A program made the translations under genes and the position numbers. From a virus, in UHGV virus genome UHGV-0200725: DNA of 39,875 nucleotides. One strand, 5' to 3'. The notes below the pieces were generated by a model that worked only from the letters and a program-made list of their open reading frames with translations, was not told where the DNA came from and did no database searches. Below are positions 499-39,311 of this stretch, one piece after another; position 1 is the first letter of the stretch; every line of letters starts with the position of its first letter.

Positions 499-1692
499 TC
501 ACTCTACCTTTTCATCAAGCCAGTCCGCCCACCATTGCATCATTTCTCTGCGCTTATCGAGATACTGAGCATGGTTGTAAATTCCACGTACAGATCCGCC
601 GTTGGCATGTGCCAGTTGCACTTCAATGGCGTCGGCAGGCCATTCGTGCTCGTTCATAATCGTGCTGAATTCATGCCTGAATCCGTGACCGCTTTCCAGA
701 CCTTCATAGCCGATTTGTTTGATCACAAGTAGCACCGCGTTCTCGCAGATTGGCTTCTTCTTATCGTTGCGCCCGGAAAAAACAAACTCTGATACTGGTT
801 TAGTGATTGAGCTTAGTGTAGTGAGAAGTTCAACCACCTGGTCTGACATCGGGACAACATGAATTTTGCGTCCCTTCATCACACTGGCGTCGATGGTGAT
901 AATCCTGTTTTCAAAATCGACGTTCTTCCATAGCATGGAACGAAGCTCTTTTGTTCTTAGGGCTGTGTAGCGTAAAACTTTGGTCGCAATGAGCGATACG
1001 ATACTTCCTGAAAATGTTGCAAGTGCTTTGTTGAATGCCGGGATCTGGTCGGCAGGTAAAAATGGGAAGTTCTTCTTGCGGTATCCCTTCATGGCGTCAG
1101 CAAGGTCAGGTGCCGGGTTATATTTAGCCCTACCAGTGACAATAGCGTAACGGAAAACCTCGCCGCATCTTCTGCGGGCTTTGTTGGCTCGCTCCATTGC
1201 ACCGCGATCTTCAAATCTACGGATTACTTCCAGCAGTTGCATCGGCTCAATATCCTGAATTTCAAGGCCGCCGATGATAGGTAAAATGTCGTCATCAAAC
1301 ATTTTTGCAAGTTCAGTCGCATACCCTACTGACCAGACTTGCTTCTTGTGCTCGTACCATTCCTTGTAAATCGCACTAAAGGAATTGTTGTTAGACGAAG
1401 CCTTTTTCGCTTTTACCGGATCGATGCCAACCGAGATGTCTTTCCTCGCGGTCCATGCTTTATCTCTTGCCTCCTGCAAAGTCATAAGCGGATATTTTCC
1501 GACGGTCAGGATTTTCTCCTTACCGTCAATCTTGTAGCGAAGCTGCCATACCTTTTTCCCGGATACAGGAACATAAAGGTACAGGCCATTACCATCGAGA
1601 AGGCGGTATGGTTTTTCTTTCGGCTTTGCTGCTTCAATCTGCTTAACGGTGAGCATGGGTAAAAATCCGGTGGGTAAAATTATTTTATCCAC
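499..1692 (-). CDS. int: Tyrosine site-specific integrase (P4/CP4-57-like family)
   Basis: 397-aa ORF; N-terminal arm-binding-like region (KQIEAAKPKEKPYRLLDGNGLYLYV) and C-terminal catalytic region with conserved R...H..R..Y spacing (HGFRHEF...RGIYNHAQY); track start at 1692 is GTG, Met13 at 1656 is an alternative start. Confidence 0.9.
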   Translation of the reverse strand: MDKIILPTGFLPMLTVKQIEAAKPKEKPYRLLDGNGLYLYVPVSGKKVWQLRYKIDGKEKILTVGKYPLMTLQEARDKAWTARKDISVGIDPVKAKKASSNNNSFSAIYKEWYEHKKQVWSVGYATELAKMFDDDILPIIGGLEIQDIEPMQLLEVIRRFEDRGAMERANKARRRCGEVFRYAIVTGRAKYNPAPDLADAMKGYRKKNFPFLPADQIPAFNKALATFSGSIVSLIATKVLRYTALRTKELRSMLWKNVDFENRIITIDASVMKGRKIHVVPMSDQVVELLTTLSSITKPVSEFVFSGRNDKKKPICENAVLLVIKQIGYEGLESGHGFRHEFSTIMNEHEWPADAIEVQLAHANGGSVRGIYNHAQYLDKRREMMQWWADWLDEKVE

Positions 1693-1911
1693 TTTTTACC
1701 CGTCATGGAGTGCGGCTGTCAACGATCTGACGCGAACCATTACGAACTGTGAATCTACGGAAGGCTTGATATTCAGGGGATTTTGCGGACTGGTACGGAT
1801 GGGAGCGAACTGATAAATGGTGTCCCCTGCAGACATCTACTTGAAGCGGCAGGGGATTGATTGGAATGGTGTTTTTTAGGTGTGAGAAATATTTTACCCG
1901 CTATTTTACCC
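1657..1911. promoter_or_regulatory. Five copies of a 9-mer (A/T)TTTTACCC / GGGTAAAA(A/T) bracketing the int start and alpA 3' end; candidate Int arm-type or AlpA binding sites
   Basis: GGGTAAAAA 1657-1665, GGGTAAAAT 1672-1680, TTTTTACCC 1693-1701, ATTTTACCC 1891-1899 and 1903-1911, read directly. Confidence 0.3.
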
Positions 1912-2106
1912 ATTGGCGCGGCTTAAGAGCTTATTTTTGAATTCACAATGGTCACGATATAACCATCTTGCTCGCCCGTGGATAACTTTGGCTTTAGGCA
2001 GGTCGCCGGACTTAATCCGGTCATAGATGAAGGTTTTACCGAAGCCAGTATCGGCCATGATGAATTTCAAATCAACCAGTGAATCAGGTTGTAGTTCGTG
2101 TTGCAT
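1906..2106 (-). CDS. AlpA-family phage transcriptional regulator / excisionase
   Basis: 66-aa ORF directly upstream of int on same strand; small helix-turn-helix protein of AlpA/Xis type (LPKAKVIHGRARWLYRDHCEF). Confidence 0.7.
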   Translation of the reverse strand: MQHELQPDSLVDLKFIMADTGFGKTFIYDRIKSGDLPKAKVIHGRARWLYRDHCEFKNKLLSRANG

Positions 2107-2150
2107 GAGTGCTATCTCCGAATAGGGAATCGAACCTGCAAATCAGGCAA

Positions 2151-2171
2151 TAAAAAACCGCCATCAGGCGG
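2151..2171 (-). terminator. Rho-independent terminator ending the leftward early operon
   Basis: Minus strand reads CCGCC-TGAT-GGCGG followed by TTTTTT; hairpin 2158-2171, A-run on plus strand 2152-2157. Confidence 0.6.
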
Positions 2172-2331
2172 CTTGATGTTCTTTCAGTTCTTCAATTCGA
2201 ATATTGGTTACGTCTGCATGTGCTATCTGCGCCCACAGCATCCAGTGGTCATAGCAGTCATTGATGTTCTCTGCTTCGATAACTCTGTTGAATGGTTCTC
2301 CATTCCATTCACCTGTAACTCGGAAGTGCAT
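2164..2331 (-). CDS. Hypothetical small protein (55 aa), not in the supplied track
   Basis: ATG 2331-2329 preceded by GGAG; translation MHFRVTGEWNGEPFNRVIEAENINDCYDHWMLWAQIAHADVTNIRIEELKEHQAA; stop lies inside the terminator hairpin; more protein-like than track ORF 2223..2411. Confidence 0.4.
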   Translation of the reverse strand: MHFRVTGEWNGEPFNRVIEAENINDCYDHWMLWAQIAHADVTNIRIEELKEHQAA

Positions 2332-2403
2332 TTATCATCTCCATAAAACAAAACTCGCAGTAGCGAGTTCAGATAAAAGAAATCCCCGCGAGTGCGAGGA
2401 TTG

Positions 2404-2688
2404 TTATTCATTGCCGATATTTACCTTTATCGCGAACACCTTTACCGGTTTATCACCGAAGTGCGGATGCGTGATTATCTTGATTTCATATCCGTCATAC
2501 GGAACATCAATTCTTCGGCTGGAATCGTCGCGCTTCGGATATCCCTTTGTGATAATCAGGCGGTCATACTCCCGGAACATAATTCGCTTATTCCAGTAGT
2601 CATTACACAAGCGATACTCTTCCGTTTTCTCTCCGCGAATCATGGCATCGAAGTATTCACCTTTGACGGCAAGTTGCAGGTTAGCCAC
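2404..2688 (-). CDS. Hypothetical protein, possible ASCH/DUF3850-like fold
   Basis: 94-aa ORF overlapping the upstream gene by 8 nt; N-terminal GEYFDAMIRGEKTEEYR resembles ASCH-type proteins (from memory). Confidence 0.5.
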   Translation of the reverse strand: MANLQLAVKGEYFDAMIRGEKTEEYRLCNDYWNKRIMFREYDRLIITKGYPKRDDSSRRIDVPYDGYEIKIITHPHFGDKPVKVFAIKVNIGNE

Positions 2689-2983
2689 GGTTAACCTCCT
2701 GCGGAGTAGCTTTTACAAGCACTGGTGTAAATCCATCTTCATTAAGGTTATGAATATAGACTTCTGTTCTCCTGCGCTCTTCAACGTTTAATATTGTTTC
2801 TGGATCATAAACCCATACTTTCATTCGACTATTCCATGAAGAAATCGCTTCAGATCTAGTTCGTTTTTCTGGTCCTTGGGCACCACATTTGCATGACACA
2901 TAGCGCATTTTCCCTCTGATACTGAATGAGTATCCGATGTTAAGCACAGTGGAACCACAGAATGGGCAGCGATATAGATTCAT
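2681..2983 (-). CDS. Lar-family restriction-alleviation protein (zinc-ribbon)
   Basis: 100-aa ORF with CPFCG...CKCG pairs typical of the Lar family; 4-nt overlap with upstream gene. Confidence 0.6.
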   Translation of the reverse strand: MNLYRCPFCGSTVLNIGYSFSIRGKMRYVSCKCGAQGPEKRTRSEAISSWNSRMKVWVYDPETILNVEERRRTEVYIHNLNEDGFTPVLVKATPQEVNRG

Positions 2984-3819
2984 AAATCACCCACCTTAGG
3001 CGCAGCTGAGACAGCAACATTCCAGAACTCAGAAAACATATTGTATGCACCAGATAGATTGGAAGTGGCATACCCTCCAAGCTCACTTCTAATCTGAACG
3101 GCTCTCATCATTTCCGGTGTTAACTCCTTCGGCACCATAACCCAACCATCCGGAGTTACCGGATAGTTGCCAGCCAGTCTACGCAAAACAGCCTTAATCG
3201 CATCAATACGGTCATCATCGCAACTTTCCAGCGTATCTATGCGGTCGAGCATGATGATTGCGTTATCAATATCAGGATTGCCGGTCCACTCATTACCGCG
3301 ATTGGATTCGACAGCCAGGTTGCCGTATACTGTTTGATTCTCGGCTTTACCCAGTCTGTCGTCGCTGCATGAATGCCCTTCCAGCCAGGCCAGTGCTTGT
3401 CGCATGAAATACGCAATATGCTTGCCGTGGTAATCGTCTTCATCGATGTGAAAAGCGATACTGCGGATGTATTCAATTGCGTTTTCAATGGCCTCTAACG
3501 CTATCGGCGCTGGCGGAGTGGTATATAGTTTTCGACATTTGTATATCCAACCGGCATGGTCAGGCGTGTCTGTAAAGCGCAAATCGTCTTCGTAGCAATC
3601 ACGACTTCGTTCTTTCCATTCCGTCCACGGAACACCGCTATTCCAGGTGGGGCGAGTGCAGGACTGATACAGAACAGGCTCTGCTTCCAGCGATGCCAGT
3701 GCAATTCGTGCCAGTTCCCTAAGATTTTCGCTATATGGTGAAGTATTATCACGATGGATTATGTGATTAGCTGTATCTATGAGAACTTGCTTTTGTTCTT
3801 CTCTGTTCATAGTGGTCAT
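2980..3819 (-). CDS. Hypothetical protein (279 aa), acidic, unknown function
   Basis: Long ORF in the coupled early-left chain; no family recognised. Confidence 0.7.
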   Translation of the reverse strand: MTTMNREEQKQVLIDTANHIIHRDNTSPYSENLRELARIALASLEAEPVLYQSCTRPTWNSGVPWTEWKERSRDCYEDDLRFTDTPDHAGWIYKCRKLYTTPPAPIALEAIENAIEYIRSIAFHIDEDDYHGKHIAYFMRQALAWLEGHSCSDDRLGKAENQTVYGNLAVESNRGNEWTGNPDIDNAIIMLDRIDTLESCDDDRIDAIKAVLRRLAGNYPVTPDGWVMVPKELTPEMMRAVQIRSELGGYATSNLSGAYNMFSEFWNVAVSAAPKVGDL

Positions 3820-3820
3820 C

Positions 3821-4636
3821 TCACTCTCCTTTGATGCGAATGCCAGCGGCGCGGATTGCAGCGATGACTTCAGAAACTTTGTATGCCATTACCGTTTGGT
3901 AATCATCGTGAAAATCTGTTCGATGAAGCATGCTGCTACGTTCCGGGAGCGATATTTCCCGAGCATCCAGTTCCTTAACGCGTTCCTCCAGTTCGTAGAC
4001 CCTGCATTGTTCTCTATCATCAATCAGATATAACCCAAGACATTCGCTTTCTACCCAACCGCCAAAATCATGATCGTAACGCTCACATGAAAACTCACCG
4101 TCACCGTCCTTTGTTGGAATGGTGTAACTATCTAATGGGCCACCATATGTCGGCACATTCCCCAATGTTGGATGCTCAATCCACATGAAAAATGCACGTC
4201 CGGTTATTGGGCAAATATCTGGCCGCCATTGGTTACGAACAGCCTTGGTTTCGGATAATTCTTCAGCGTGTTGTTTTACTTCCTCAAGCTCAACTCTCAG
4301 CTTCCCAACCGTAAGAGCAATATCCTCGTTCTCCTGGTCACGGCGTTTGATGTATTGCTGGTTTCTTTCCCGTTCATCCAGAAGCGCCAGCACAGTAGCC
4401 GGATTGGCGGCGGCGATGAATTCAGCATTGGCCTGCTGTTCCATTTGGAAATCTTCATCGAAACCGCTTTCTGGATGCGCTCCTTCAATTCTGCAAATGG
4501 GAATATATCCAGCAACTTCACGATGAATTAGCGCATCATCACCATCAAATCGGCTCTCTCCATATTCGAGCGACCACACGCCACACGTTGCTTTCTCTGC
4601 CTTTTCACGCAGTGCCTGATAGTCAATCTTGCTCAT
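3821..4636 (-). CDS. Ea22-like early-region protein
   Basis: 271-aa ORF with central coiled-coil-like segment, resembling lambdoid ead/Ea22 proteins; start overlaps upstream stop. Confidence 0.55.
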   Translation of the reverse strand: MSKIDYQALREKAEKATCGVWSLEYGESRFDGDDALIHREVAGYIPICRIEGAHPESGFDEDFQMEQQANAEFIAAANPATVLALLDERERNQQYIKRRDQENEDIALTVGKLRVELEEVKQHAEELSETKAVRNQWRPDICPITGRAFFMWIEHPTLGNVPTYGGPLDSYTIPTKDGDGEFSCERYDHDFGGWVESECLGLYLIDDREQCRVYELEERVKELDAREISLPERSSMLHRTDFHDDYQTVMAYKVSEVIAAIRAAGIRIKGE

Positions 4637-5208
4637 TGGATGACTCCTTTACGAAGCTGTTCGGCGATATCTTCGAGAACGCCATCAGAGAATGAGCGAT
4701 CAAAATCGCCTTCCGGCGCATTAGCCATAAACTCAGTAGAGGTAAGAATCATCCTGGCAATATCCGCGGCGTTCTTCGCAGTATCATCAATAAAACCAGC
4801 TTCCCAGGCAGCCAGCATTCTGTTCGCCACAAAGTAAGCTCCCTCCTTGCGTGCTTCAGTCTTCCCTTCAGCCAGAAAAGCATCGGTGGCTGGGGTTTCA
4901 GTAATATCATCTTCCCATTCGCTAAACTCCTCACGACAAAAGTCATTAAATTCCTTCTCAGATTGCTTAAGCGAGGAATTTTCAGCAGCCATCTTCGCGC
5001 ATTTAGCCTCAAGGTTATCAATCGTGATTCCAGCAGAACGACACTCCCGCAACGCCGTTTCTAGTTTTGATTCAAGCTCACCGAACTTACGGACAAGATA
5101 TTCAGCGTTTGTTTCGTCAACCTTTAAATCACTTGGGATGCATTTACCTTTCAGAAAACCATCCATCTCAATTAGTGACATTTGTTTCATTTCTTCCCAC
5201 TCCGCCAC
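4633..5208 (-). CDS. Hypothetical protein (191 aa from GTG 5208; 185 aa from ATG 5190)
   Basis: ORF in the coupled chain; ATG at 5190 overlaps the stop of the upstream 54-aa ORF. Confidence 0.65.
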
Positions 5209-5351
5209 ATCGCATTCAGATATTTGTTTTGATTCACTGATGGAAAAGAATTTCTCTTAAGCAATTCCTCTCTCGATGGCATTGGTTTTACGCGTTGGCG
5301 AATAATCATTTCTGCCGGAAGAATGCCGGGATTGTATGCAAGTCCTCTCAT
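5187..5351 (-). CDS. Small hypothetical protein (54 aa), not in the supplied track
   Basis: ATG 5351-5349 overlaps the TGA of the upstream gene; own TGA overlaps ATG 5190 of the next gene; translation [54 protein letters not shown]. Confidence 0.35.
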
Positions 5352-5629
5352 GATTTACTCTCCACGAACTGGTCAACGGCCATGCTAAGTGACACACCTA
5401 AAGTCTCGATATGCTGCTGAATATCCTGTAGCGTCCGCGCCTGAGATAACAGAATTTCACGGTTGCATAACTCTTTAACCAGATGCTCAAACTTGCTGTA
5501 ATAACCGATACGGCTTAGTGTTTCTTTCCCTGCATTCTCACCTTCTTTGATAATTCCTCTTTCGCTAAGAATCAGATCGTGTTTGGTTCCGGTAATAACG
5601 TATTTTCCGAGGTCGATGTTTAGCTTCAT
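5348..5629 (-). CDS. Hypothetical protein (93 aa)
   Basis: ORF in coupled early-left chain. Confidence 0.65.
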
Positions 5630-5645: not shown

Positions 5646-5960
5646 TTAATTTATTTGTATGCCTGCTCTTTTTTCATCGAGTTTTTTTAGCTTGTATCGC
5701 ATAGCTCTTACCGAATAAATTGAGCGGCAGGTTGCAATTGCTATTTCTTCTGCGGAGAACTTACCGAAAAGTGATACTTCGGCTCTTGTCCATCGTCTTC
5801 CACGAAGTCGGCTAACAATGTCAGCGCCAATCCTTGTTGCTTTCGCCATTACTGCTTTCTCAGTCCTTTCCAGTTTTTCAGCGATAACTTCAACTGGCAT
5901 TGTCGCCGCTACTTCGCGCAAGAAATCGACTTCCCATTTCTCCCATGGAGTCTTTTTCAT
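5646..5960 (-). CDS. Hypothetical protein (104 aa), basic
   Basis: ORF in early-left operon, 16 nt upstream of next gene. Confidence 0.65.
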   Translation of the reverse strand: MKKTPWEKWEVDFLREVAATMPVEVIAEKLERTEKAVMAKATRIGADIVSRLRGRRWTRAEVSLFGKFSAEEIAIATCRSIYSVRAMRYKLKKLDEKRAGIQIN

Positions 5961-5971
5961 AGGCGATACCG

Positions 5972-6460
5972 TTATTTGATAAGAAGTGAAGGTTTCCCAA
6001 CTTTGAGTTGAGCGCCGGGGATATTTATTCCTGCTTTTAGTTGGTGTTTGATTGCCAGTTTGTCGGCTTTAATTGTCGTTTCAAACTCAACGTATTCAGG
6101 AGGAAGGGCGCTTGAGTCGATGATTTCTACAGTTTCTGACGGTTTGCGGATTGTTACCTGGTGAATACCTGCTCGAATCTTTTTCTTGCCAACCATTTCA
6201 AGCGATGACGCTATATACGCCATAATGCTGTCAATCTTATTTTGAATTACTGCAGCTCGTTCATTCAGTGACTTTGCCTCTTCCTTGAGGCGTTCAGCAT
6301 AACCAGATTCATTTTTAATAATGGCAAGAAGTTGCTCTATTTTATCGGTAAATTCTCCTTCCATGCCTTCTATTGTGTCAGCAATCATCTCTGGCTCTAA
6401 ATCTGAATCCATCAATTTTGCGTATTCATTGGCAATTTCATATAGTTTGCTCACTGGCAA
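5972..6460 (-). CDS. Siphovirus Gp157-family protein
   Basis: 162-aa ORF immediately downstream of RecT, overlapping it by 23 nt; sequence character matches Gp157-like proteins (from memory). Confidence 0.55.
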   Translation of the reverse strand: MPVSKLYEIANEYAKLMDSDLEPEMIADTIEGMEGEFTDKIEQLLAIIKNESGYAERLKEEAKSLNERAAVIQNKIDSIMAYIASSLEMVGKKKIRAGIHQVTIRKPSETVEIIDSSALPPEYVEFETTIKADKLAIKHQLKAGINIPGAQLKVGKPSLLIK

Positions 6461-7349
6461 CCTCCAGTTTCTCTTTGCATTCTGCGTAAATGGCTTGTAC
6501 GTTCTGCTGCAATTTCATTCCAGATGTCAGGCGATATGCTTCTGCAAAATATCGCTTCAAATCATCCATGTTTTCAGCCTGAGCCATTTCATCACAAAGA
6601 AGTTGTGCTTTATCCGTTATTTCCTGCTGGCGTTTCCGTTCATCTTCGCGGATATCTTCCTCTGATTTGTGCGGCATAACTGGTTCAGTCCACACACCTT
6701 CTTCTTCGTTTAGTACGTGAATAGCACTATCAAGACGTGATGCCTTAGGCCAATACTTGCTTGCACGCTTTACGACCGTCTTTCGCGCCATCTCATTCCA
6801 GTGATTTACCCATGGTCCTTTATCGCTGAATGCCGCCTTGCTTGTTTTCCTTACAGCCTCAATTTCAGCCAGACTCATCTCTTCCGTTAGATAATCACCT
6901 GCTGGCGTCTTAACTGTGCAGTAAACGCCAACGATATCACCACGATCACCGAAGGCGTTGTATTTATGGGTTGGTGCTTTATCAAGCCCGTTTGACTCAT
7001 AGGTATCGTTAGCATGAACAAGTTTTGCCTGACCCCATGAGATAACACCAGACTCCATTGCAATATGGAGCAATCCCATATAACTGATATCAAGGCACAC
7101 CATGCCGTCGCGCGGAACTAGATAAGCAAGTTTGCTGGCCGGGTTTAAGGTGATGCCGATCGCCGCAACATTGATGATGGCGTTCTGTGCGCTGGTTGGA
7201 TTTGCCAGTGCCGTTTTAGCCAGGTAATCATTTTTCTGGAAATACTGAATTGCAAACTGGCTTTCCTTAGCCCATGTCACCGTCTGTTCAGTCAATGCTC
7301 CGCAGAATAACTGCTCCTGCTGTTTAACGAATTCAACGATATTGCTCAT
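6438..7349 (-). CDS. recT: RecT-family single-strand annealing recombinase
   Basis: 303-aa ORF; motifs LAYLVPRDGMVCLDISYMGL and GPWVNHWNEMARKTVVKRASKYWP match RecT-family core. Confidence 0.85.
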   Translation of the reverse strand: MSNIVEFVKQQEQLFCGALTEQTVTWAKESQFAIQYFQKNDYLAKTALANPTSAQNAIINVAAIGITLNPASKLAYLVPRDGMVCLDISYMGLLHIAMESGVISWGQAKLVHANDTYESNGLDKAPTHKYNAFGDRGDIVGVYCTVKTPAGDYLTEEMSLAEIEAVRKTSKAAFSDKGPWVNHWNEMARKTVVKRASKYWPKASRLDSAIHVLNEEEGVWTEPVMPHKSEEDIREDERKRQQEITDKAQLLCDEMAQAENMDDLKRYFAEAYRLTSGMKLQQNVQAIYAECKEKLEVASEQTI

Positions 7350-7657
7350 GCTGCTTCTCCATAAATGTGTCTGCGTTTGAATATTGCGAAGGCATATTCA
7401 GCCTTAACTCTTTCGGTTATTGCATCCCAGAACCATTCAGCGGCTTTTTCCTGATAGTCACAGTCATCATCTTCCAGCCAGTCGATAGCGTCCTTAGTGT
7501 GTTCATCTGGTTTATATGAGCGAAGCATTTCGCTTATTGGGTCGCAACGTTTGCAGAGGCGATCAACTTCACTGTTGATTCGTTCGTAATCTTCATCAGT
7601 AAAACTTGCGATTATTTGCGATATTTCACGCTTATCATTCAGAGTCAGAATCATCAT
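7346..7657 (-). CDS. Hypothetical protein (103 aa)
   Basis: ORF with 4-nt overlap to recT. Confidence 0.65.
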   Translation of the reverse strand: MMILTLNDKREISQIIASFTDEDYERINSEVDRLCKRCDPISEMLRSYKPDEHTKDAIDWLEDDDCDYQEKAAEWFWDAITERVKAEYAFAIFKRRHIYGEAA

Positions 7658-8010: not shown

Positions 8011-8075
8011 GGGTAACTCCTTATATTTGATTGCATAACGAAAACGCCTCGAGTGAAGCGTTATTGGTATGCATA

Positions 8076-9640: not shown

Positions 9641-9644
9641 GGAA

Positions 9645-31659: not shown

Positions 31660-31669
31660 GGGGTAATCA

Positions 31670-33085
31670 ATGGCTACGTGGCAACAGGGTATTAATTCTG
31701 GTGGTTTTCTGGCTGGCATCGGTACGCAAAATGAGAATGCGCCAAAGGCAAGCGACATTAACGCAACGCTTGGTCTGATCCGCGAAAACAATGAACTGGC
31801 TCGCTCAGGTGCAAATAACATTGGTCTGACCGCGTTACGTGGTCTGGCTGGAGTTGCTGATATTTACAATCAGGAACAGCAACAGAAAGCTATTAGTGCG
31901 TTCAATAAGGTTCACGCTGATGCATGGGCTTCTGGTGATCCATCTGGACTATTTAAGTTTGCCCAGGAAAATCCAGCGTTTGTTGCACAGGCACAACAGG
32001 CGTTTTCCGGTCTTAATGAGCAGCAACGCAACGATATGGGCGATTTAGCCATGAGGGCTAACGTCGCTCTTTCTCAGGGACCGGAAGCCTACAGTAAATT
32101 CATTACTGACAACAAGGACAGGTTAAATCGCGTTGGTGCTAATGCTGACTGGATGATTCAGACAGGTATCCAGAATCCAGAGCAGCTATCACACATGCTG
32201 ACTACTATGTCTCTCGGTGCGCTTGGACCAGAAAAGGCGTTTGCTGTTCAGGACAAGATGGCTGGTCGTGAGATTGACCGAGGCAGGCTGGCAGAGACAA
32301 TCCGCAGCAATCAGGCTGGTGAAGCACTTCAGGCGAGAGGGCAAAACCTTTCCTATCAGTCAGCAATGACTGGGCACAATATCGCAGCACAACGCTTGGC
32401 TCTGGATCAGCAAGAGTTCGGGTTTAAGATGCAGCAAGCGCAGGAAAAGGCTCAGCAGTTGATTAGCGAAGCACCTAAGCTGTCAGTAAACATGGAAAAA
32501 GGCATCGAGACGGCTGTAAACAATGCTACAGCATCATCAAACTCAGCCAATTCTATGAGTGCGCTTGCTCAACAGTTCAGAGCAGAAAAACCAACGACAG
32601 GTTTGTTCGGTAACGCACAGAACATGTTCGCAAAACTTACCGGAAGCGATACAACATTGCGTGATTTGCGCATTCGCCAAAATGCCCTTGTTAACAGTCA
32701 GGTTCTTAAATTCCTACCTCCCGGCCCAGCAACGGATAAAGACGTTGAGATCGTTCGACAGGGTGCGCCAACTGACATGGATAACCCTGAGACGGTCGCA
32801 AGATGGCTTGATGCAATGGCAAACCTTGAGCGACGAAACGCGCAGTTTAATGAGTTTAAAGCCGAGTGGATGAGCGCGAATGGCAACCCTGGACAATCGC
32901 GTAATGGCGGTCAGATATTGGGGTTGGATGTTAAAAAAGGTGAATCATTGGGGAGTGCCGTTAAGCGGTATATGTCAATGAATACTGACGCAGCGCCAGC
33001 ACAAGATTCGACACCTTCAGGAGAACCACGGAATCAGGTTGGATCATATACCTCAAAATCAGGCATTCAATTTACGGTGGAATGA
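31670..33085 (+). CDS. 20: Ejection protein (P22 gp20-type)
   Basis: 471-aa ORF in conserved order. Confidence 0.8.
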
Positions 33086-34923
33086 TGAAAGTAACTGCAA
33101 ACGGTAAGACATTTACCTTTCCTGATGGTACGAGCACCGAAGATATTGGCACCGCCATTGATGAGTATTTTGCTGGTCAGGCTGTTCAGCAACAAATAGT
33201 TAATCAGGCCAATAATGCACCAACACGGGAAGAACCATCATTGATGCAACAAGCTGGCGATTGGCTCACTGGTGGTCAAAGTGCAGGGCAAATTGCAGAA
33301 CAGGCTGGTCGTGGTCTGGTAAACATACCATTTGACGTATTGCAGGGCGGCGCAAGTCTGATTAATGCAATCAGTCAGGGGCTTGGTGGACCCAAGGTTT
33401 TGGATGATGTTTATCGTCCAGTAGACAGACCGACAGACCCCTACGCGCAAGCCGGTGAAACAATTGGTGGGTATTTAGTTCCAGGAGTTGGAACGGCAGG
33501 AAGCATGGCTATTGGATCACTGGCAGAGGCCGCAAATCAGAAAGGCGATTTCGCACAAAATGCAGCTAAAAATGCCGGAGTTAACCTTGCCACTCAGGGT
33601 GTTCTTTCCGCAGCAGCAAAGGGAATAGGGCGTGGAATAACGGCTATAAAAGGTGATATTGCGCCAGAAGTGGCGAAGAAAATTGCCACATCAGAATCGA
33701 TGGGCGTGACACCAATGACATCTGATGTTATCCCGCCGAAAAATGCTTTCACTCGCGGCCTAACTCAGGATGCCGAGGGGGCTTTGCTCGGGACAGGCTC
33801 AAAGCGAGCGGAGCAATATGCAACGCGTAGTAAGCTGGTAAGTAATTATTTTGACCGTTTTGGTGAGTACAACCCTGATGATGTGGTGAAATCTCTTACC
33901 ACCACGTTAAGGGGGCGGAAGGATGCCGCTGGCGCTGTTATCAATGACGTCACCAATAAAATGGGTAATGCCGCAGTTGATACCACAAATACCATGAATG
34001 CTCTGAATACAGCGATCGCAAGACAGGAACGGCTTGGGACGTCTGCCAATCAAAGCCTGCTTACATCCTTGCGTAACCTACGTGAAGAATTAGCAAACCC
34101 TGCAACTGATTTGGATGTTACGTTTGATCTCTTGCGTCAGCACAGAACAGCATTTAGATCTAATGTTCAGGGAGATGCTATGGTCTTCCCCAACCAGGCA
34201 AAAGCAGCTACCAATATGGTAGAGAATGCAATGTCAAAAGACCTTCGTAACGCAGTTGCTAAAAACCTCGGTGCATCAGACGCAGCAAAATACCTTAAAG
34301 CAAATTCCGATTATGCAAACGTTTATAATAAGGTGCTTAATAAAAACATTGCTAACAAGCTCAACAAGGCAAGCAGTGAAGCCAGTCCTGAACTTATAAA
34401 TACCGTTGTATTAAGCAGAAAACCATCTGACGTGAAACGAATATGGAGCGCCCTGGATGATAAAGGGAAAGATGCTATGCGTGCAGCTTACGTCAGCAAA
34501 ATAGCGGAAAAGGCCGGTGACTCTCCAGCCAAGTTCATCACTGAAGTTAATAAGCTGAAATCTCAGTCAGGCGGTGAAATTTACAACACTATTTTTTCTG
34601 GAAAGCACATGAAAGAGCTTGATGCTCTTCATGAAGTTCTACAGCAAACAGCAAGGTCAGACACCGCAAATGTAGTAACTCAGACGGGGCAATCACAAGC
34701 CAACAGGATAAGGACGATTGGCGCAACTGCGACTCTTGGTGTATCAATGGGGCTTGAGGCTGGCTTTGGTGCAATGATGCGTTTGTATGAGTCCAAAGCA
34801 GCAAGGAATGCTCTCTTACGTCTGGCAAACACTAAAGCTGGAACGCCAGCCTATGAAAGAGCGTTGAGTAACGCTGCAAATGCCATCAGGCCGCTGCTTG
34901 CTACTGAGGCAACACAGCAGTAA
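33082..34923 (+). CDS. 16: Ejection protein (P22 gp16-type)
   Basis: 613-aa ORF, last of the ejection-protein trio. Confidence 0.8.
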
Positions 34924-34947: not shown

Positions 34948-35337
34948 TTAACATTTTCTTTTTACTTTTCCAACAAAAGCTTTGGTTGAATCCATATTCC
35001 CATAACCAGAAATGGTTTTCGACATTAAAACTGTTCCATTAGGATGTATTACCCATGAGTCGATAACTCGTTGAGTTTCGCCATTCGCGCCGATTCCAAT
35101 GATGGAGTTTTTAGACAATGCTTTGTAAGCCATGCCGCCCGCATCCGTCCCAGAATATGTGATACTGGCATCTTCACCGTTTGTCTTAATGATGAATGTT
35201 CCACTAAAACCATCTTCTTCCGGTTGAAAATTATTTCGTTCTGAATAGCTTATTCCGTGCATATCTCCAACGACCCAGCACTCTGCTGAGACAGAAAACG
35301 AGAAGACAAGGAAAGCCATTGCTATAATCAATTTCAT
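34948..35337 (-). CDS. Secreted hypothetical protein (129 aa) with signal peptide, distal gene of the mnt operon
   Basis: N-terminal MKLIIAMAFLVFSFSVSA then ECWVV; Cys near both ends of the mature protein; beta-rich; convergent with gene 16 (24-nt gap). Confidence 0.65.
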   Translation of the reverse strand: MKLIIAMAFLVFSFSVSAECWVVGDMHGISYSERNNFQPEEDGFSGTFIIKTNGEDASITYSGTDAGGMAYKALSKNSIIGIGANGETQRVIDSWVIHPNGTVLMSKTISGYGNMDSTKAFVGKVKRKC

Positions 35338-35352
35338 TTTAAGCCCTTATTG

Positions 35353-35688
35353 TTATTGATTCTTTTTGCACGGAAATGTTTTTCCTACTGCTAGGGCGGT
35401 TAGTATAACTGCACTCTCATTTCTTGATTCTGGGTTTTTGTTTAGATATTTCTCAACGATATCGGTGTATTGATACATGTCAACGCCATCAGGAGGACAT
35501 AGAGAACCAATTAGTATCAATGAGTCAGTTACTCCGCGCAAATATCCAGTAATGTAAAGCGATGAAAAATCATCACCCTTTTTACCTTGTTGAATGTTGT
35601 AAAGAAGGTCATTACCCGTTTGAAGCTCGCGCAGCTCAGCACTGGAAGAAGAGACAACTGCTAACAAGAACAGTGATAGAAATCTCAT
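35353..35688 (-). CDS. Secreted hypothetical protein (111 aa) with signal peptide, translationally coupled to mnt
   Basis: ATG 35688-35686 overlaps the mnt TGA; N-terminal MRFLSLFLLAVVSSSSA; two Cys in mature protein; helical character. Confidence 0.65.
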   Translation of the reverse strand: MRFLSLFLLAVVSSSSAELRELQTGNDLLYNIQQGKKGDDFSSLYITGYLRGVTDSLILIGSLCPPDGVDMYQYTDIVEKYLNKNPESRNESAVILTALAVGKTFPCKKNQ

Positions 35689-35939
35689 TTCAAATCCTTT
35701 TCATAAATCTTTTTAAGTGTCTCAAACACTATAGCCTTGAACTGCTCAGCCTGCTGATCAGCCAAGCGTTCAGCTTCGTCGCGATATCCTGTAATCGGTG
35801 ATGGTTTTGATAGTGCATCCTGAACGATTTGTAATAACTCAGAGTTCATTGACCTTCCGTTAGCCTCGGCTCTTAATTTCAATTTTTCTCTTACTTCCAA
35901 AGGCATACGGAAGTTAAAGTGCGGATCATCTCTAGCCAT
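35685..35939 (-). CDS. mnt: Mnt repressor (ribbon-helix-helix)
   Basis: 84-aa ORF MARDDPHFNFRMPLEVREKLKLRAEANGRSMNSELLQIVQDAL... matching P22 Mnt as recalled; divergent from arc across an operator region. Confidence 0.85.
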   Translation of the reverse strand: MARDDPHFNFRMPLEVREKLKLRAEANGRSMNSELLQIVQDALSKPSPITGYRDEAERLADQQAEQFKAIVFETLKKIYEKDLK

Positions 35940-35961
35940 GCCATCACTCCAAGTTAGTGTA

Positions 35962-36013
35962 TTGACATGATAGAAGCACTCTACTATATTCTCAATAGGT
36001 CCACTGTGGACCT
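35962..36013. promoter_or_regulatory. Pant promoter with Arc operator and Mnt operator
   Basis: -35 TTGACA (35962-35967), -10 TATATT (35985-35990); Arc operator ATGATAGAAGCACTCTACTAT (35967-35987); palindrome AGGTCCACTGTGGACCT (35997-36013). Confidence 0.75.
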
Positions 36014-36029
36014 ATATTGTGAGGTGAAC

Positions 36030-36191
36030 ATGAAAGGAATGAGCAAAATGCCACAGTTCAATTTGCGGTGGCCTAAAGAAGTATTGGATTTGGTACGCAA
36101 GGTGGCGGAAGAAAATGGTCGGTCTGTTAATTCTGAGATTTATCAGCGAGTAATGGAAAGCTTTAAGAAGGAAGGGCGCATTGGTGCGTAA
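36030..36191 (+). CDS. arc: Arc repressor (ribbon-helix-helix)
   Basis: 53 aa from ATG 36030: MKGMSKMPQFNLRWPKEVLDLVRKVAEENGRSVNSEIYQRVMESFKKEGRIGA, matching P22 Arc as recalled. Confidence 0.85.
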   Translation: MKGMSKMPQFNLRWPKEVLDLVRKVAEENGRSVNSEIYQRVMESFKKEGRIGA

Positions 36192-36259
36192 AGTTGAAGC
36201 CCCAACTGCTGTAACAGTCAGGGCTTCGGCATCAACAAATCGGATTAGGAAATATTGAC

Positions 36260-37138
36260 ATGAAAAGTATAGCAAAGGCACAAAACGATTTCACCATCTT
36301 CAAATTCGGCGACAGTGAAATCCGCGTCATCAACAAGTGCGGTGAGCTGTGGTTTGTAGCTAAAGATGTTTGTGATGCTTTAGATTTGACTAACTCACGC
36401 AAGGCGCTTACTGCACTTGATGACGATGAAAAGGGAGTAACTTTAAGTTACACCCTTGGTGGTGAGCAGAATCTAAGCATTGTGAGCGAATCAGGTATGT
36501 ATACATTGGTTCTGCGCTGCCGCGATGCAGTCAATAAAGGTTCAGTCCCGCACAAATTCCGCAAGTGGGTAACAGCAGAAGTTCTGCCTTCAATTCGCAA
36601 ACATGGCGAGTATGTAAAAGGAAAGAAAACCACTGTTGAGGAAAGAACACCGCTACGCGATGCAGTAAACATGCTGGTAGGAAAGAAAGGACTTCGCTAT
36701 GACGATGCATACAATATGGTTCATCAGCGTTTTGGTATTGACAACATTGATGAACTTTCAATTGAACAAATCCCGCTGGCCGTAGAGTACATCCACAGGG
36801 TAGTGCTTGAAGGCGAGTTTATCGGCAAACAAGAGAAGAAAACCAACGAGCTTTCTGAAAAAGAAGCAAACAGCCTTGTATGGCTATGGGATTATGCCAA
36901 CCGCTCACAAGCATTATTCCGCGAACTGTATCCGGCGCTGAAACAAATTCAATCGAACTATTCCGGCAGATGTCATGACTGCGGTTATGAGTTCTCCCGT
37001 ATTATCGATATAGCGAGAGACGTTTTAATCAATCACTCACGAGATGTTGATATCAATGAGCCAGACGGACCAACGAATCTTTCCGCATGGATGAGACTTA
37101 AGAATAAAGAATTACCTCCTTCAGTACATAACTACTGA
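36260..37138 (+). CDS. ant: Antirepressor (Ant-like, Bro-N/KilA-N type N-terminal domain)
   Basis: 292-aa ORF downstream of arc; N-terminal region typical of phage antirepressor domains. Confidence 0.7.
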
Positions 37139-37157
37139 CAGATAACCAACGCAACGA

Positions 37158-37180
37158 CCCAGCTTCGGCTGGGTTTTTTT
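37158..37180 (+). terminator. Rho-independent terminator after ant
   Basis: CCCAGC-TTCG-GCTGGG followed by TTTTTTT. Confidence 0.8.
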
Positions 37181-37238
37181 ATGCCCAAAATTCACCGTAG
37201 CCACGCTGCGGCGATTCCTTGTATCTGGAGCAAATTAA

Positions 37239-39311
37239 ATGACAGACATTACAGCCAATGTTGTAGTGAGCATGCCTTCGCAACTCTTCACTATGGCTCG
37301 TTCTTTTAAAGCCGTAGCCAATGGCAAAATCTATATCGGTAAAATTGACACTGACCCGGTAAATCCTGAAAACCAGATTCAGGTTTATATAGAGAACGAA
37401 GACGGTTCTCACGTTCCTGTTTCGCAACCAATCATCATTAATGCGGCTGGTTACCCGGTATATAACGGACAGATTGCCAAGTTCGTAACTGTGCAAGGCC
37501 ATTCGATGGCTGTTTATGATGCATACGGTGTGCAGCAGTTCTATTTTCCTAATGTGCTGAAGTATGACCCGGATCAGTTGCGACAGCAATTATTAAACCC
37601 TGACACTGGCCTAGGAGATGCGCTTGTTATTGTTAAACAGCCATATGCTGATTCTGTACCTATTACTCAACATCAGCACAACACCTATCTCCTTACCCCT
37701 TACCACTTCGGAGCAAAGGGAGATGGTATTGCAGATGACACTCTTGCCCTAAACCGCTGGTCCAATTGCGGAGCTAAGGTACTCTATTGGCCAGCAGGAA
37801 AATATCTGGTGAGCCCTACAAATGGTGTTTCTCTGGATATGGATAACTACCATACAGGGGATTCCGCACTAACGGCGTGCGTAACCGTTCCCTATGGCGT
37901 GAAAATTTATACGGCTGGGACAGAAACCCAGTTATGCGTGAAGGATGCTGACTCAGCATCGACCGTAGGTCTGGCCGTTAGCTACCCGGAGTCAAGTTAT
38001 TCCCAGGGAGAAACCGACATCGGAAAATTCATGATTCGCCTGGAAAACGGAAATGGTCGGTACGGTATTCTTACTCCACTCAGGGAGGAAATGTTCACTG
38101 CGCACCGGGCGAAGTTCAAATTAGGAGCGCATTTCGGTCCTCAACAGGGGCGTGATGACCTGACGGTGCTACAGTATTCGTGGGTAAATGGCATGCTGAT
38201 TGGCGACGCTTTTAGCGGCTCAGTGCATGTCACTGGATACGGCAGCTATAACGTGCAGCAGGTTGAAGGTACGCAATTCCAGTGCGTGGCCGTTAAGATG
38301 AAGTCCGTTCGAGGTAACGTAGGTGTAGACATCAGATTCAACACAAACAACTGGTGGAAGTTTGTCGAACTGAGTGACGGCGTTGAAGGGTTTGTTGTCA
38401 AGGACAGCGAAGGGCTTGGGGCATTTGTTGGAATCGACCTAACCAACCCAGCCAGCGAGCCAGGTGGATTTATCGATAACGTACACGTCAACGTTAAGCA
38501 AAACGGAGTACGAGCCAGAAACAGGCCATCCCTGCAAATCGGAAACATTGAAGTCTATAAAAGTGATGGATTTGCCACTGACCTTGTTTACGATGCGGTG
38601 CTTCTGGTTGACTGCCAGGAAGTGACTATCAACTCTATTCACGCAATCGTCGGCAACTCAATCACAAATGCTCAGTCAGTAGTTAACTCGACAAACAGCA
38701 CATTCCGCCTGAACTCATACTTTGCGCAAAACATCAGGTTCGTCGATTTTGTGGTTAATAGCCCTGACTGCTATGTCGGAGAGGGGACAATTAACCAGGT
38801 CGAGGCAGTTCACTCACTTTCTGGATCACAAAGCAACGACTTCCACGGTAGTGATGTTCTGGTTAGATCCTACAGAAACAACGTTCGCCCACTTTACGCA
38901 GTGATGGATTCCGCTTTCAACAGGGCAAGGGCGAGGTTTCCACAAAATACAAGCCTCCAGGTGAGAACCTTTCTCGACTACACTGTGGCAGCAGCTGGGA
39001 CTTTAACAATAGAACCAAGGCTTGACCCCTCCAGGTACTACATCATCATGAGTGCTGGTACAGGTGCCTTCACCTATTCAATTGAGCTGGATAAAGTGTC
39101 TGCCGTAGTTGGTGATATTGTTTACATAAAGATAGCCGGGTCATCATCTGCTAACCCAACAGTTTTGGTTAAAAATGGTATTGGTGGGACAACGCTCAGC
39201 ACATTCAATAATATCGGTCCGATTCGTTTGAATTGTGCTTACAGATTTAATGAGTCAGGTAACTGGGTGGCCTACTACATTACCCAAAGCGTTGAAACCA
39301 CTTATGGCTAA
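37239..39311 (+). CDS. 9: Tailspike: P22 gp9-type head-binding N-terminal domain with a divergent receptor-binding body
   Basis: 690-aa ORF; first roughly 115 residues ([11 protein letters not shown]...VLKYDPDQ) match the P22 tailspike head-binding domain; remainder is Gly/Asn/Val-rich beta-helix-like sequence unlike P22. Confidence 0.85.

Follow-up and report, generated by a model that had tools for sequence, protein, structure and literature searches.

Textbook mosaicism in the genome of a new Lederbergvirus of Escherichia coli

The early regions of P22-like phages are mosaic; these phages also carry a Q gene identical to that of lambda, lysis cassettes that can replace one another and an "ant moron" that varies, and the slots between their modules are already known as variable regions or morons (PMC2629481). 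In lambdoid phages, genes with functional interdependence move together (PMC9836094). Rad52-like recombinases are drivers of mosaicism together with Orf and Rap, and where fragments have been exchanged by homologous recombination, their borders still bear traces of it (PMC3945230).

We compared with these systems a window of 39,875 nucleotides, the whole of the viral sequence UHGV-0200725. The window is a closed circle, phage matches being continuous over the join of positions 39875 and 1, and its best matches in the phage collection, at 95–97% identity, belong without exception to Lederbergvirus or to lambdoid coliphages. It belongs to the genus Lederbergvirus of the lambdoid group, with E. 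coli as host, and is a new member rather than a lambda × P22 hybrid. Very probably, it is the complete genome of a temperate P22-like podovirus that integrates at argW, of a kind that the lambdoid gene pool typically yields.

Alignment of the whole window to lambda (4,226 nt at 95% identity) and P22 (20,281 nt at 81%) bears out the sharply mosaic structure proposed in the initial annotation, and the mosaic takes in the entire window, beyond positions 499–39311. At module edges, identity leaps between approximately 0 and 97–99%. With five references, 44% of 99 breakpoint clusters lay no more than 30 bp from a gene boundary in comparison with 13.5% of random positions, and the observed value was reached in none of 5,000 randomizations. 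For 86% of the window, a panel of seven references (lambda and P22, four phages and one prophage of E. coli) contains a twin at 90% identity or higher; the approximately 5.1 kb without one consist of accessory genes and the receptor-binding part of the tailspike, which we followed to PHROG membership and E. coli prophage matches. The closest relatives of most modules are the E. coli Lederbergviruses and prophages Gally, Kapi1, HK620, APC_JM3.2 and NZ_CP104117, at 96–99%, whereas most P22-like segments are just 72–87% identical to P22.

The attachment region and the sequence around the join contain the following features:

499–1692, minus strand: integrase of the IntS/HK620 type, a tyrosine recombinase with an arm-binding domain, 98% aa to HK620 int
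1816–1832: attP core, matching the 3' end of tRNA-Arg argW, between int and xis
1906–2106, minus strand: excisionase (HK620 hkaC, TorI-like), 100% aa to HK620 hkaC
39487–39662, plus strand: relic similar to the P arm of lambda attP, 83.5% to lambda 27534–27708
39684–39848, plus strand: 3' remnant of a tail-fibre gene of long-tailed lambdoid type, without a start codon, seen in translation
10–309, plus strand: small predicted membrane protein, phrog_1443, downstream of the fibre remnant

The integrase carries the Pfam domains Phage_integrase, Phage_int_M and Arm-DNA-bind_3. The right-end homology of prophage NZ_CP104117 ends at the attP core, within tRNA-Arg, and the Kapi1 record begins at this core, where it has an annotated 17-bp attachment site. 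The P arm-like relic lies away from the int gene and is also found in Gally (97%); sequence matching the fibre remnant is annotated as "tail fiber protein" in Tritos, 2G7b and HannyBb.

The early left region follows:

2164–5629, minus strand: accessory genes (lambdap35-like, o94, Lar-like restriction alleviation, o279, ead/Ea22, eae-like, DUF2737, DUF5405)
5646–7657, minus strand: recombination module (abc1-like, Sipho_Gp157, RecT, o103), 98–99% aa to Gally
7739–8770, minus strand: kil, cIII, o67 and ral (Pfam Lambda_Kil, cIII)

The accessory region mixes lambda, P22, HK620 and APC_JM3.2 segments with unmatched stretches, and its genes were assigned by Pfam and PHROG. The recombination module has no match in lambda or P22, being neither lambda exo/bet/gam nor P22 erf/abc2. 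The lambdap35/ea8.5 segment (2144–2407) is 94.7% identical to lambda, and the ea10–ral segment (8072–8865) 96%; here ral and its flank are lambda-type (8072–8195 and 8538–8865 at 96% nt), ral itself at 98% aa. These two segments, cII and the P arm-like relic are lambda-identical patches absent from the initial annotation.

The immunity region combines three affinities:

8849–9148, minus strand: N antiterminator of Gally/HK620 type, 98% aa to Gally N
9463–9503, minus strand: nutL, with boxA GCTCTTTAACA and boxB TCCCGCCGAAATGCGGGA, read directly from the sequence
9487–10607: P22-type immC cassette between the two boxA sequences, 84% nt to P22
9551–9603: OL, operator match to P22
9670–10320, minus strand: c2, 92% aa to P22, with an identical HTH
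10321–10386: OR3–OR1, operator match to P22
10401–10586, plus strand: cro, 95% aa to P22
10594–10636, plus strand: nutR, boxA and boxB identical to those of nutL, read directly
10695–10988, plus strand: cII, lambda allele, 98% aa and 97.4% nt to lambda
10704–10717: pRE motif TTGC-N6-TTGC

N is 98% identical to HK620 N over its N-terminal 65%. A P22 gene 24 type was rejected for N, its similarity to P22 gp24 not being significant. Sequence around nutL (9370–9550) is 98.9% and that from nutR onward (10594–10697) 100% identical to HK620, whereas the aligned P22 sequence at nutL has a boxB unlike that of the window. The HK620-type N terminus and the boxB shared by the two HK620-type nut sites form a protein/site pair, and N is predicted to match its nut sites. 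The P22 type first proposed for c2, cro and the operators between these sites is confirmed, OR1–3 and OL being nearly identical to those of P22, and the predicted immunity specificity is that of P22. The gene taken for a P22-type c1 is actually lambda cII, only 57% aa identical to P22 C1.

Replication genes and the nin region come next:

11011–11283, plus strand: orf90, accessory gene in the cII–O slot, phrog_2519
11286–12233, plus strand: replication initiator O (Pfam Phage_rep_O)
11713–11855: origin, about eight iterons of CCGCACATGATG within O
12230–13606, plus strand: DnaB-type helicase of P22 gene 12 type, 90% aa to P22 gp12 and 99% to Gally
13603–13678, plus strand: conserved spacer, 98.7% to the lambda ren–ninB intergenic sequence, also in P22
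13679–14570, plus strand: o108, o65 and o118, accessory genes in the P–ninB slot (PHROGs 5903, 7185, 343)
14542–16847, plus strand: nin region of HK97/HK620 type (ninB, ninE, ninF, roi, ybcO-like (DUF1364), rusA, ninH)

Gally and Kapi1 have orf90 annotated at the same position. The C-terminal part of O resembles P22 gp18; homology to P22 sets in at 11859, just past the last iteron. The spacer is likely a recombination linker; the three genes behind it gave no match in Pfam and PADLOC searches and are mostly unmatched in the seven-reference panel. The idea of a lambda-like ninB–ninH did not hold: just 13% of the 3.2-kb region aligned to lambda, through ninE and ninF only, and the same two genes aligned to P22 (12%). 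These are at least 81% identical to both phages and the sole nin genes so close, ninB being 37% aa identical to each and ninH 56% to lambda. The nin proteins are 95–100% aa identical to those of HK620, ninF excepted (88%). The region shares roi, the ybcO-like gene and rusA with HK620 and lacks ninC, D, G, I and ren.

Late control and lysis are encoded by:

16844–17467, plus strand: late antiterminator Q, 100% aa and 97% nt to lambda Q
17131–17144: paQ-like TTGC-N6-TTGC inside Q
17510–17763, plus strand: pR' (TTGACT-17-TAAATT), qut, 6S leader, tR' and orf64 region, 96–97% to lambda
18251–18574, plus strand: holin S with MKM dual start, 99% aa to lambda; P22 gp13 90% aa
18558–19034, plus strand: endolysin R, 99% aa to lambda
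19031–19468, plus strand: spanin Rz, 89% aa to P22 and 58% to lambda
19230–19415, plus strand: Rz1, embedded in Rz, lipobox LGVSAC, 97% aa to P22 and 40% to lambda
19456–20924, plus strand: post-lysis accessory genes o50, Rha-family regulator (19811–20329) and DUF2560/orf80 (20682–20924)

Homology of Q to both lambda and P22 begins exactly at its start codon, where identity steps from about 45% to 98%. The assignment of Q as lambda-like is correct but does not discriminate, because P22 gp23 itself is 96% aa identical. That of pR'/qut/tR' to lambda stands, P22 similarity downstream of Q stopping at 17567, and Q is predicted to match its qut site. Of the lysis genes proposed as lambda-like, S and R are so, R without a counterpart in P22, but Rz and Rz1 are P22-type. 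Rz is in fact chimeric, with a lambda-like N-terminal membrane segment, a P22-type remainder and a crossover zone at approximately 19065–19280 by sliding identity; lambda identity fades gradually along the gene as P22 identity climbs, the trace expected from a crossover in diverged homology. Downstream, orf80 is 96% identical to P22.

The virion genes and immI complete the circle:

21004–22969, plus strand: terminase small (gene 3) and large (gene 2) subunits
22970–27355, plus strand: portal (1), scaffold (8) and coat (5), P22-type procapsid cluster, 73–85% aa to P22
27400–30964, plus strand: orf69-like and genes 4, 10, 26, 14
30967–34923, plus strand: ejection proteins 7, 20, 16
34948–35688, minus strand: o129 and o111, two signal-peptide proteins at the position of P22 sieA
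35685–37138: immI, P22-type mnt-arc-sar-ant
35685–35939, minus strand: mnt, 79% aa to P22
36030–36191, plus strand: arc, 98% aa to P22
36192–36258, minus strand: sar antisense RNA (Rfam, 65.6 bits)
36260–37138, plus strand: ant, with Bro-N N terminus and P22_AR_C C terminus, the C-terminal part P22-like
37239–39311, plus strand: tailspike (Pfam Head_binding)

Gene order is colinear with P22 (3-2-1-8-5-4-10-26-14-7-20-16-...-9, 50–99% nt), and no homologue of an essential P22 gene is disrupted or of unusual length; pac use and viability are predictions that rest on sequence identity. From 20998 to about 22400, identity to P22 is 96–98% nt and then falls to about 72% within terL. An HK620/Sf6-type procapsid was rejected, HK620 and Gally being 27–33% identical or unmatched; APC_JM3.2, IME10 and E. 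coli prophages match the cluster at about 95–97% nt. Gene 26 encodes a tail needle of 317 aa with an Sf6-type knob (Pfam Phage_tail_NK), and gene 20 has a break at about 32270–32350. The proposal that the packaging-to-tailspike block follows P22 thus holds for gene order, but only aa 1–113 of the tailspike, its head-binding domain, are P22-type, with P22 nucleotide similarity confined to 37173–37576; its receptor-binding part is unrelated to P22 and has matches in E. coli prophages only. In the sieA position, o129 belongs to phrog_2651, and o111 is Rap1a/Tai-family immunity-like. The P22 character of mnt and arc was recognized correctly.

The initial annotation described a two-parent hybrid, a P22 backbone (immC including c1, morphogenesis, immI) with the nin, Q and lysis modules of lambda. 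In its favour, breakpoint mapping gave 96–99% identity to lambda for Q, pR'/qut/tR', S and R, though not for nin and Rz/Rz1, and c2, cro, the operators, mnt, arc and the virion order are P22-like. We nevertheless consider it very improbable. P22 has the same Q, so that Q cannot count as imported from lambda when P22 is the reference. The cII allele is that of lambda, N and both nut sites are of HK620 type, and nin is HK620/HK97-type, with ninE and ninF equally near to lambda and P22. The spanin genes Rz and Rz1 are of P22 type. Neither phage is the source of int/xis, the recombination module, the knob of the needle or the body of the tailspike, and in most P22-like segments the E. coli relatives, at 95–99%, are closer than P22. 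The annotation had also noted that junctions coincide with accessory genes. Such genes do fill the slots between modules, but the coincidence is largely circular because genes without a lambda or P22 homologue must break homology blocks, and every gene of this "junction cargo" falls in an existing phage protein family.

A chimeric contig, assembled from reads of at least two co-occurring lambdoid prophages, could explain why collinearity with any phage-collection record extends to 66% of a window half at most, and why coverage of 80% or more of the right 25 kb is limited to four E. coli genomes. This is highly unlikely, as each major joint is intact in independent genomes (Gally, Kapi1, HK620 and prophage NZ_CP104117): the run from c2-cro through cII, orf90 and O to P is unbroken in Gally at 98–100%, as is Q-S-R-Rz (chimeric)-Rz1-o50-rha, and in NZ_CP104117 a 15.7-kb stretch at 97% runs without a break through the post-lysis region, the P22-type heads, immI and the beginning of ant. 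The essential genes are complete and the circle closes at a typical size. Vertical descent with module-specific rates and no horizontal exchange, although compatible with gradients such as conserved gp10, gp7 and gp14 versus fast gp20, gp16 and tailspike, is just as implausible given the steps inside terL and at the Q start codon, neighbours whose best relatives have nonhomologous virions (R and cII of the siphovirus lambda beside P22 podovirus genes) and nonhomologous replacements in the same slot (R versus P22 gp19, RecT versus erf, rusA versus ninG).

For the favoured reading, a product of the lambdoid gene pool, we propose that each functional unit was inherited or exchanged with its required cis-sites or partner domains, with joints at gene or domain boundaries or within short conserved linkers. 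The proposed units here are the P22-specificity c2-operator-cro, set exactly between the conserved boxA pair of HK620-type N/nutL/nutR; lambda cII with its own pRE motif and the paQ motif in lambda-type Q; the O N-terminal domain with the iterons and, separately, the O C-terminal domain with the P22-type DnaB helicase; the HK97/HK620-type nin region; lambda-type Q with pR'/qut/tR'; lambda S and R; the P22-type Rz periplasmic domain with Rz1; P22-type terS and the 5' part of terL, probably by recent exchange; an apparently older P22-type procapsid and tail cluster; conserved needle and tailspike attachment domains joined to swapped distal domains; and P22-type immI (mnt-arc-sar-ant). The co-inherited pairs of c2 HTH and operators, cII and pRE/paQ motifs, Q and pR'/qut, and Rz and Rz1 are consistent with this. 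The mechanism would be divergence-tolerant homologous recombination among co-resident lambdoid phages and prophages, plausibly assisted, judging from the literature, by RecT, NinB and RusA of the phage itself; selection for function may have filtered the rare illegitimate joins, accessory genes settling in well-known variable slots.

The direction, order and timing of exchanges lie beyond pairwise identities, and lambda and P22 serve as reference points rather than demonstrated donors. The two-parent description gives way to a broader kinship: for most modules the nearest kin is neither lambda nor P22, and E. coli Lederbergviruses and prophages are closer. The mosaicism is real but textbook.

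We aligned the window with the lambda and P22 references by blastn and tblastn and computed coverage per module and sliding identity. Lambda aligned to 4,226 nucleotides (10.6%) at 95% identity, and P22 to 20,281 nucleotides at 81% identity. The initial annotation had described P22-type immunity, morphogenesis and immI regions joined to lambda-type nin, Q and lysis modules. Judged by their divergence from lambda, the supposed lambda-like modules fall into two sets: Q, the leader, S and R are true lambda alleles, and most of nin and Rz/Rz1 are not. With seven reference genomes (lambda, P22, four E. coli phages and one E. coli prophage), 86% of the window finds a twin that is at least 90% identical; the remaining part consists of the receptor-binding part of the tailspike, which is matched in E. 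coli prophages, and small accessory genes. Known modules in a new permutation are all that the genome presents.

A megablast search of both window halves against 50,697 phage records returned only lambdoid and P22-like coliphages and Salmonella phages, at 82-97% identity and with at most 66% of a half covered per record. When the last 875 and first 700 bases were joined as a query, several phages, including PhiR11_1, Tritos and 2G7b, matched unbroken across the join, so the 39,875-bp window is a complete genome that closes into a circle and has a size typical of P22-like phages. HK620 IntS is 98% identical to the integrase (499-1692). The right-end homology of a prophage in NZ_CP104117 ends at 1832, within the tRNA-Arg gene argW, and the record of phage Kapi1, which begins at its own annotated attachment site, aligns from position 1816; these two ends place attP between int and xis, at approximately 1816-1832, with predicted integration at argW. 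We rejected the window edges as prophage ends, the window being a circular permutation with an internal attP. An identical prophage was not found in complete E. coli genomes, the best match covering 83% of the right 25 kb. Rfam at the gathering threshold matched only the sar RNA in the whole window, and a TTGC-N6-TTGC search upstream of int found no exact pI CII-binding motif. The lambdoid early layout of P22-like phages (Lederbergvirus) is present, running from int-xis to N-OL/pL-repressor-OR/pR-cro-cII-O-P-nin-Q-lysis, with operators, nut sites and pR' identified.

Of the P22-type immunity, the repressor-operator-cro cassette stood, but N and the nut sites are of HK620 type and the gene called c1 is lambda cII. 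The c2-cro block (9487-10607) is P22-type: c2 is 92% identical to P22 in amino acids, with residues 17-53, HTH included, unchanged; cro has 95% identity; three bases distinguish OR1-3 from those of P22; and a pattern search found two OL sites of the 18-bp ATTTAAG-N4-CTTAAAT type. The exact limits of the block are the two copies of boxA:

9493-9503, boxA GCTCTTTAACA of nutL
10594-10604, boxA GCTCTTTAACA of nutR

Just outside the cassette, nutL and nutR carry the same boxB, TCCCGCCGAAATGCGGGA, which differs from the aligned P22 sequence and is identical to that of HK620; both nut segments are 99-100% identical to HK620. The N-terminal 65% of N is 98% identical to HK620 N, and comparison of N with P22 gp24 gave no significant similarity (E = 0.04, confined to the Arg-rich motif). 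The arrangement is that of a clean immunity-cassette swap at 9487-10607, with boxA as the linker around a c2-operator-cro unit of P22 specificity. As c2 and the operators match those of P22, the phage is predicted to be homoimmune with P22 though an E. coli phage, while its N/nut specificity would be that of HK620. The supposed P22-type c1 shares 98% of its amino acids and 97.4% of its nucleotides with lambda cII as against 57% of amino acids with P22 C1; a TTGC-N6-TTGC motif at its 5' end occupies lambda's pRE position, and a second such motif lies within Q. Two anti-restriction-type genes were observed in the early left operon:

2681-2983, minus strand, Lar-like restriction alleviation protein (Pfam PF14354)
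8570-8770, minus strand, ral, 98% identical in amino acids to lambda ral

The O gene contains about eight iterons, CCGCACATGATG, at 11713-11855, and similarity to P22 starts at 11859 and continues through the gp12-type helicase (90% amino acid identity); the origin-binding and helicase-recruiting halves of O are thus separate units. A 76-bp spacer 3' of the helicase gene (13603-13678) is kept in both lambda (98.7%) and P22 and looks like a recombination linker. Between this spacer and ninB lie three small genes in a row (13679-14570; 108, 65 and 118 amino acids), assigned to PHROGs 5903, 7185 and 343 and mostly absent from the seven reference genomes. The nin region had been called lambda-type, a label that fails: 13% of 13607-16843 aligns to lambda, through ninE and ninF only (93% and 89% amino acid identity), and P22 matches both equally well. 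The amino acid identity to lambda is 37% for ninB and 56% for ninH, and ren, ninC, ninD, ninG and ninI are absent from the region. As in HK620, roi, a ybcO-like gene and rusA are present, and the gene set is 88-100% identical to that phage, whose annotation refers these genes to HK97 and HK022.

Q is 97% identical to lambda in nucleotides and 100% in amino acids but cannot separate the two phages, since P22 gp23 is itself 96% identical; P22 and epsilon34 are known to carry essentially lambda's Q (PMC2629481). The pR'/qut/6S/tR'/orf64 leader (17468-17763) proved lambda-type, with 96-97% nucleotide identity to lambda 44510-44805 and pR' hexamers TTGACT-17-TAAATT, and Q/qut specificity is predicted to be that of lambda. 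The lambda-type assignment also holds for S (99% amino acid identity, with an MKM dual start of the S105/S107 type) and for the transglycosylase R (99%), which is without a P22 homologue. It does not hold for Rz and Rz1, which share 89% and 97% of their amino acids with P22 as against 58% and 40% with lambda, only the first ~30 residues of Rz being lambda-like. Within 19065-19280, sliding identity to lambda falls gradually while that to P22 climbs, the pattern to be expected when two diverged homologous sequences cross over. A 167-bp stretch from tR' to the S upstream region (17764-17930) is unmatched in lambda, P22 and five E. coli relatives. Kapi1 has tRNA-Asn and tRNA-Thr genes at this position; a tRNA scan of the window found none there or elsewhere, ARAGORN found nothing in 17764-17930, and a permissive Rfam search of 17400-18300 was likewise empty.

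The virion block is colinear with P22, as had been described, but is itself mosaic. All 13 of the 13 homologues are intact in the P22 order 3-2-1-8-5-4-10-26-14-7-20-16 ... 9, with pairwise identities of 50-99% in nucleotides and 26-99% in amino acids.

Amino acid identity of selected virion proteins to P22
terS, 99.4%
gp10, 93%
portal, 78%
coat, 73%
gp4, 58%
gp20, 53%
tail needle (Sf6-type knob, 317 aa), 34%
tailspike, 26%

The terS gene and the first ~930 nt (5' two-thirds) of terL, at 20998-22400, are 96-98% identical to P22 in nucleotides, and identity drops abruptly to ~72% at ~22400. This step suggests a recent swap of the pac-recognition/ATPase part between Salmonella and E. coli P22-like phages. 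A short tail and headful (pac) packaging are predicted, terS being 99.4% identical to P22 gp3, and pac and terS function would be P22-like. The procapsid genes are P22-type and not HK620/Sf6-type, with 95-97% twins in APC_JM3.2, IME10 and E. coli prophages. In the gp26 needle (29556-30509), a domain swap joins a P22-like N-terminus to an Sf6-type knob (PF16532). The only tailspike part common with P22 is the head-binding domain at residues 1-113 (PF09008 Head_binding, E = 4e-67).

The P22-like nature of immI was borne out by mnt (79% amino acid identity), arc (98%), the divergent mnt and arc-ant operon arrangement and a sar RNA between arc and ant (Rfam RF00262, 65.6 bits against a gathering score of 43). 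The antirepressor gene ant (36260-37138) shows a domain swap, a Bro-N N-terminus that is not P22-type being fused to a P22_AR_C C-terminus.

In P22, the interval from gene 16 to mnt contains sieA; here it contains two small ORFs, o129 and o111, each with an N-terminal signal peptide (34948-35688, minus strand). The first belongs to family phrog_2651 and is 95% identical in nucleotides to sequence in Salmonella phages Emek and ST-35. The second (35353-35688) has the N-terminal signal-peptide-like sequence MRFLSLFLLAVVSSSSA and matches Pfam PF18602 (Rap1a/Tai-family T6SS-immunity-like) at 55.3 bits against a cut-off of 27.7. Its homologue in NZ_CP104117 lies in the same position under the PGAP name 'Rap1a/Tai family immunity protein', and searching the phage collection gave no nucleotide match to o111. 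Canonical Rap1a/Tai4 immunity proteins are encoded beside a cognate Tae4/Ssp-type amidase effector, which they neutralise; no effector gene adjoins o111, its neighbours being gene 16, o129 and mnt. Against PDB sequences, o111 gave only a weak match to solved Tai4 (6ijf, E = 0.08) and o129 gave only noise. A homologue search with o111 produced six clusters, including E. coli and Serratia, all of them Pfam Rap1a and without informative context, and nothing directly relevant was found in the literature on prophage-borne Rap1a. We entertain, with little confidence, a prophage-expressed conversion function for the pair, either as an orphan T6SS immunity protein or as a periplasmic inhibitor acting against superinfecting phages. 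In the former case, the immunity protein would protect lysogens from peptidoglycan-amidase effectors of competing bacteria; in the latter, the inhibitor would block proteins with which superinfecting phages degrade the cell wall. No reading as novel as this one comes from the mosaic architecture, and the sole mildly unusual item in the genome is the Rap1a/Tai-family protein, which has a signal peptide and shares the sieA slot with another secreted protein.

Downstream of the tailspike, the segment 39487-39662 matches the P arm of lambda attP (27534-27708 in lambda) at 83.5% identity; the IntS-type int, with its real attP at 1816-1832, lies far from this segment, and the same relic occurs in Gally at 97%. 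Probably it is a fossil left by a former integration module of lambda type. At 39684-39848 lies the 3' remnant, lacking a start codon, of a tail-fibre gene known from long-tailed lambdoid phages (...GERYYTVDYSGVTGLL...EEENAELRQ...), with a GC-rich hairpin and the small hydrophobic ORF 10-309 (phrog_1443) coming next. Siphoviruses such as Tritos and 2G7b carry this block uninterrupted, so the post-tailspike region would record a past exchange between podovirus and siphovirus lambdoids. Pfam gave no significant family for the 59-aa fibre remnant, and an intramolecular-chaperone domain is not claimed for it.

We grouped the end points of nucleotide homology to five references and obtained 99 breakpoints. 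A gene start or stop lay no more than 30 bp away from 44% of them, compared with 13.5% of random positions, and the observed value was reached in 0 of 5000 randomisations. The breaks inside genes (O, terL, Rz, gp26, gp20, ant and the tailspike) coincide with expected domain boundaries, and joints are found at boundaries or within conserved linkers. The initial annotation had placed junctions where novel cargo accumulates: the slots after cII, the helicase gene, Rz, gene 16 and the tailspike do hold genes that are neither lambda nor P22, but the coincidence is partly circular, as genes without homologues necessarily break homology blocks. All accessory-slot genes belong to existing PHROG families, PADLOC matched no defence system among ten accessory proteins, and the slots themselves are already recorded as variable in P22-like phages, one example being the 'ant moron' (PMC2629481).

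Modules travel with their cis-acting site or partner: c2 with its operators, N with boxB on both sides, cII with pRE and paQ, Q with qut, and Rz with Rz1. O travels as two units, the N-terminus with the iterons and the C-terminus with the helicase. The literature points to homologous recombination that tolerates divergence, between lambdoid phages and prophages residing in the same cell, as the mechanism that may have produced this architecture. Rad52-like recombinases and Orf/Rap-type accessory proteins promote such exchange (PMC3945230), and co-transfer of interdependent genes is selected for (PMC9836094); the window encodes RecT, NinB (Orf) and RusA. A chimeric assembly is unlikely, as each joint is intact in the independent genomes of Gally, Kapi1, HK620 and the NZ_CP104117 prophage and the essential genes are all full length. 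Purely vertical descent cannot explain identity steps from 98% to 72% within one gene, nor non-homologous replacements in the same slot. The importance of the genome beyond its correct annotation is slight: it adds another clean case of lambdoid modular evolution that fits established breakpoint rules, and the corrected module map stops the spread of a misleading "lambda x P22 hybrid" label.

Compared with lambda (NC_001416), the window shares cII (98%), Q (100%, with pR'/qut/tR'), S and R (99% each), ral (98%), ninE (93%), ninF (89%) and lambdap35 (98%), whereas int, the recombination genes, cI/cro, O/P, most of nin, the Rz periplasmic domain and Rz1 differ and the virion genes are without similarity, lambda being a siphovirus. 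P22 (AF217253) shares the immC specificity (c2 92%, cro 95% and operators), helicase (90%), Q (96%), Rz (89%), Rz1 (97%), orf80 and terS (96-99%), the virion order and mnt, arc and sar. The window lacks the gene 24-type N and nut sites, c1, erf/abc2, gp19 lysozyme, sieA, sieB and gtrABC of P22, and it uses another int and att site. Portal, coat and gp4 reach just 58-78% amino acid identity, and there is no relation to P22 in the needle knob, the gp20 C-terminal half, the N-terminus of ant or the body of the tailspike.

Lederbergvirus HK620 (NC_002730) is an earlier documented case of a P22-like virion combined with lambda-type Q, S and R. That phage shares the IntS-type int and xis (98-100% amino acid identity), the N N-terminus, nutL and nutR, the nin series ninB-ninE-ninF-roi-ybcO-rusA-ninH (88-100%), the lambda-type Q, S and R (99-100%), gp10, gp14 and gp7 (97-99%) and the tailspike head-binding domain (90%). 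It differs in its repressor and cro (42-44%), a P22-C1-like cII (63%), O and P, a Sak4/SSB recombination module, Sf6/HK620-type procapsid genes (27-33% or unmatched), a degraded immI, another Rz and an O-antigen polymerase-like gene 3' of the tailspike. Gally (OV696608) and vB_EcoP_Kapi1 (MT813197) match the early region from the RecT module on at 96-100%, the common stretch comprising c2, cro, cII, orf90 (an accessory gene between cII and O), O, P, nin-Q-S-R, the chimeric Rz/Rz1 and the post-lysis genes o50 and rha. The N of Gally is 98% identical in amino acids and Kapi1 shares the argW attP, but both have an HK620/Sf6-type terminase, portal and coat and other accessory genes, and the integrase of Gally is a different one, annotated at about 357 aa.

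P22-type heads with lambda-type lysis in E. coli are likewise already found in APC_JM3.2 (MG197996), IME10 and several prophages. These two phages and the NZ_CP104117 prophage share the P22-type terminase-portal-scaffold-coat genes at 95-97% nucleotide identity, a lambda-type holin and endolysin and an E. coli host. APC_JM3.2 differs in its truly lambda-like nin (ninC-like, ninG, ninH and ninI phosphatase), its immunity region, the absence of immI and its tailspike. The NZ_CP104117 prophage shares with the window IntS at argW and the Rap1a/Tai-family gene adjoining mnt; its nin genes (Dam methylase, ninX), tailspike body and post-Rz gene are different.
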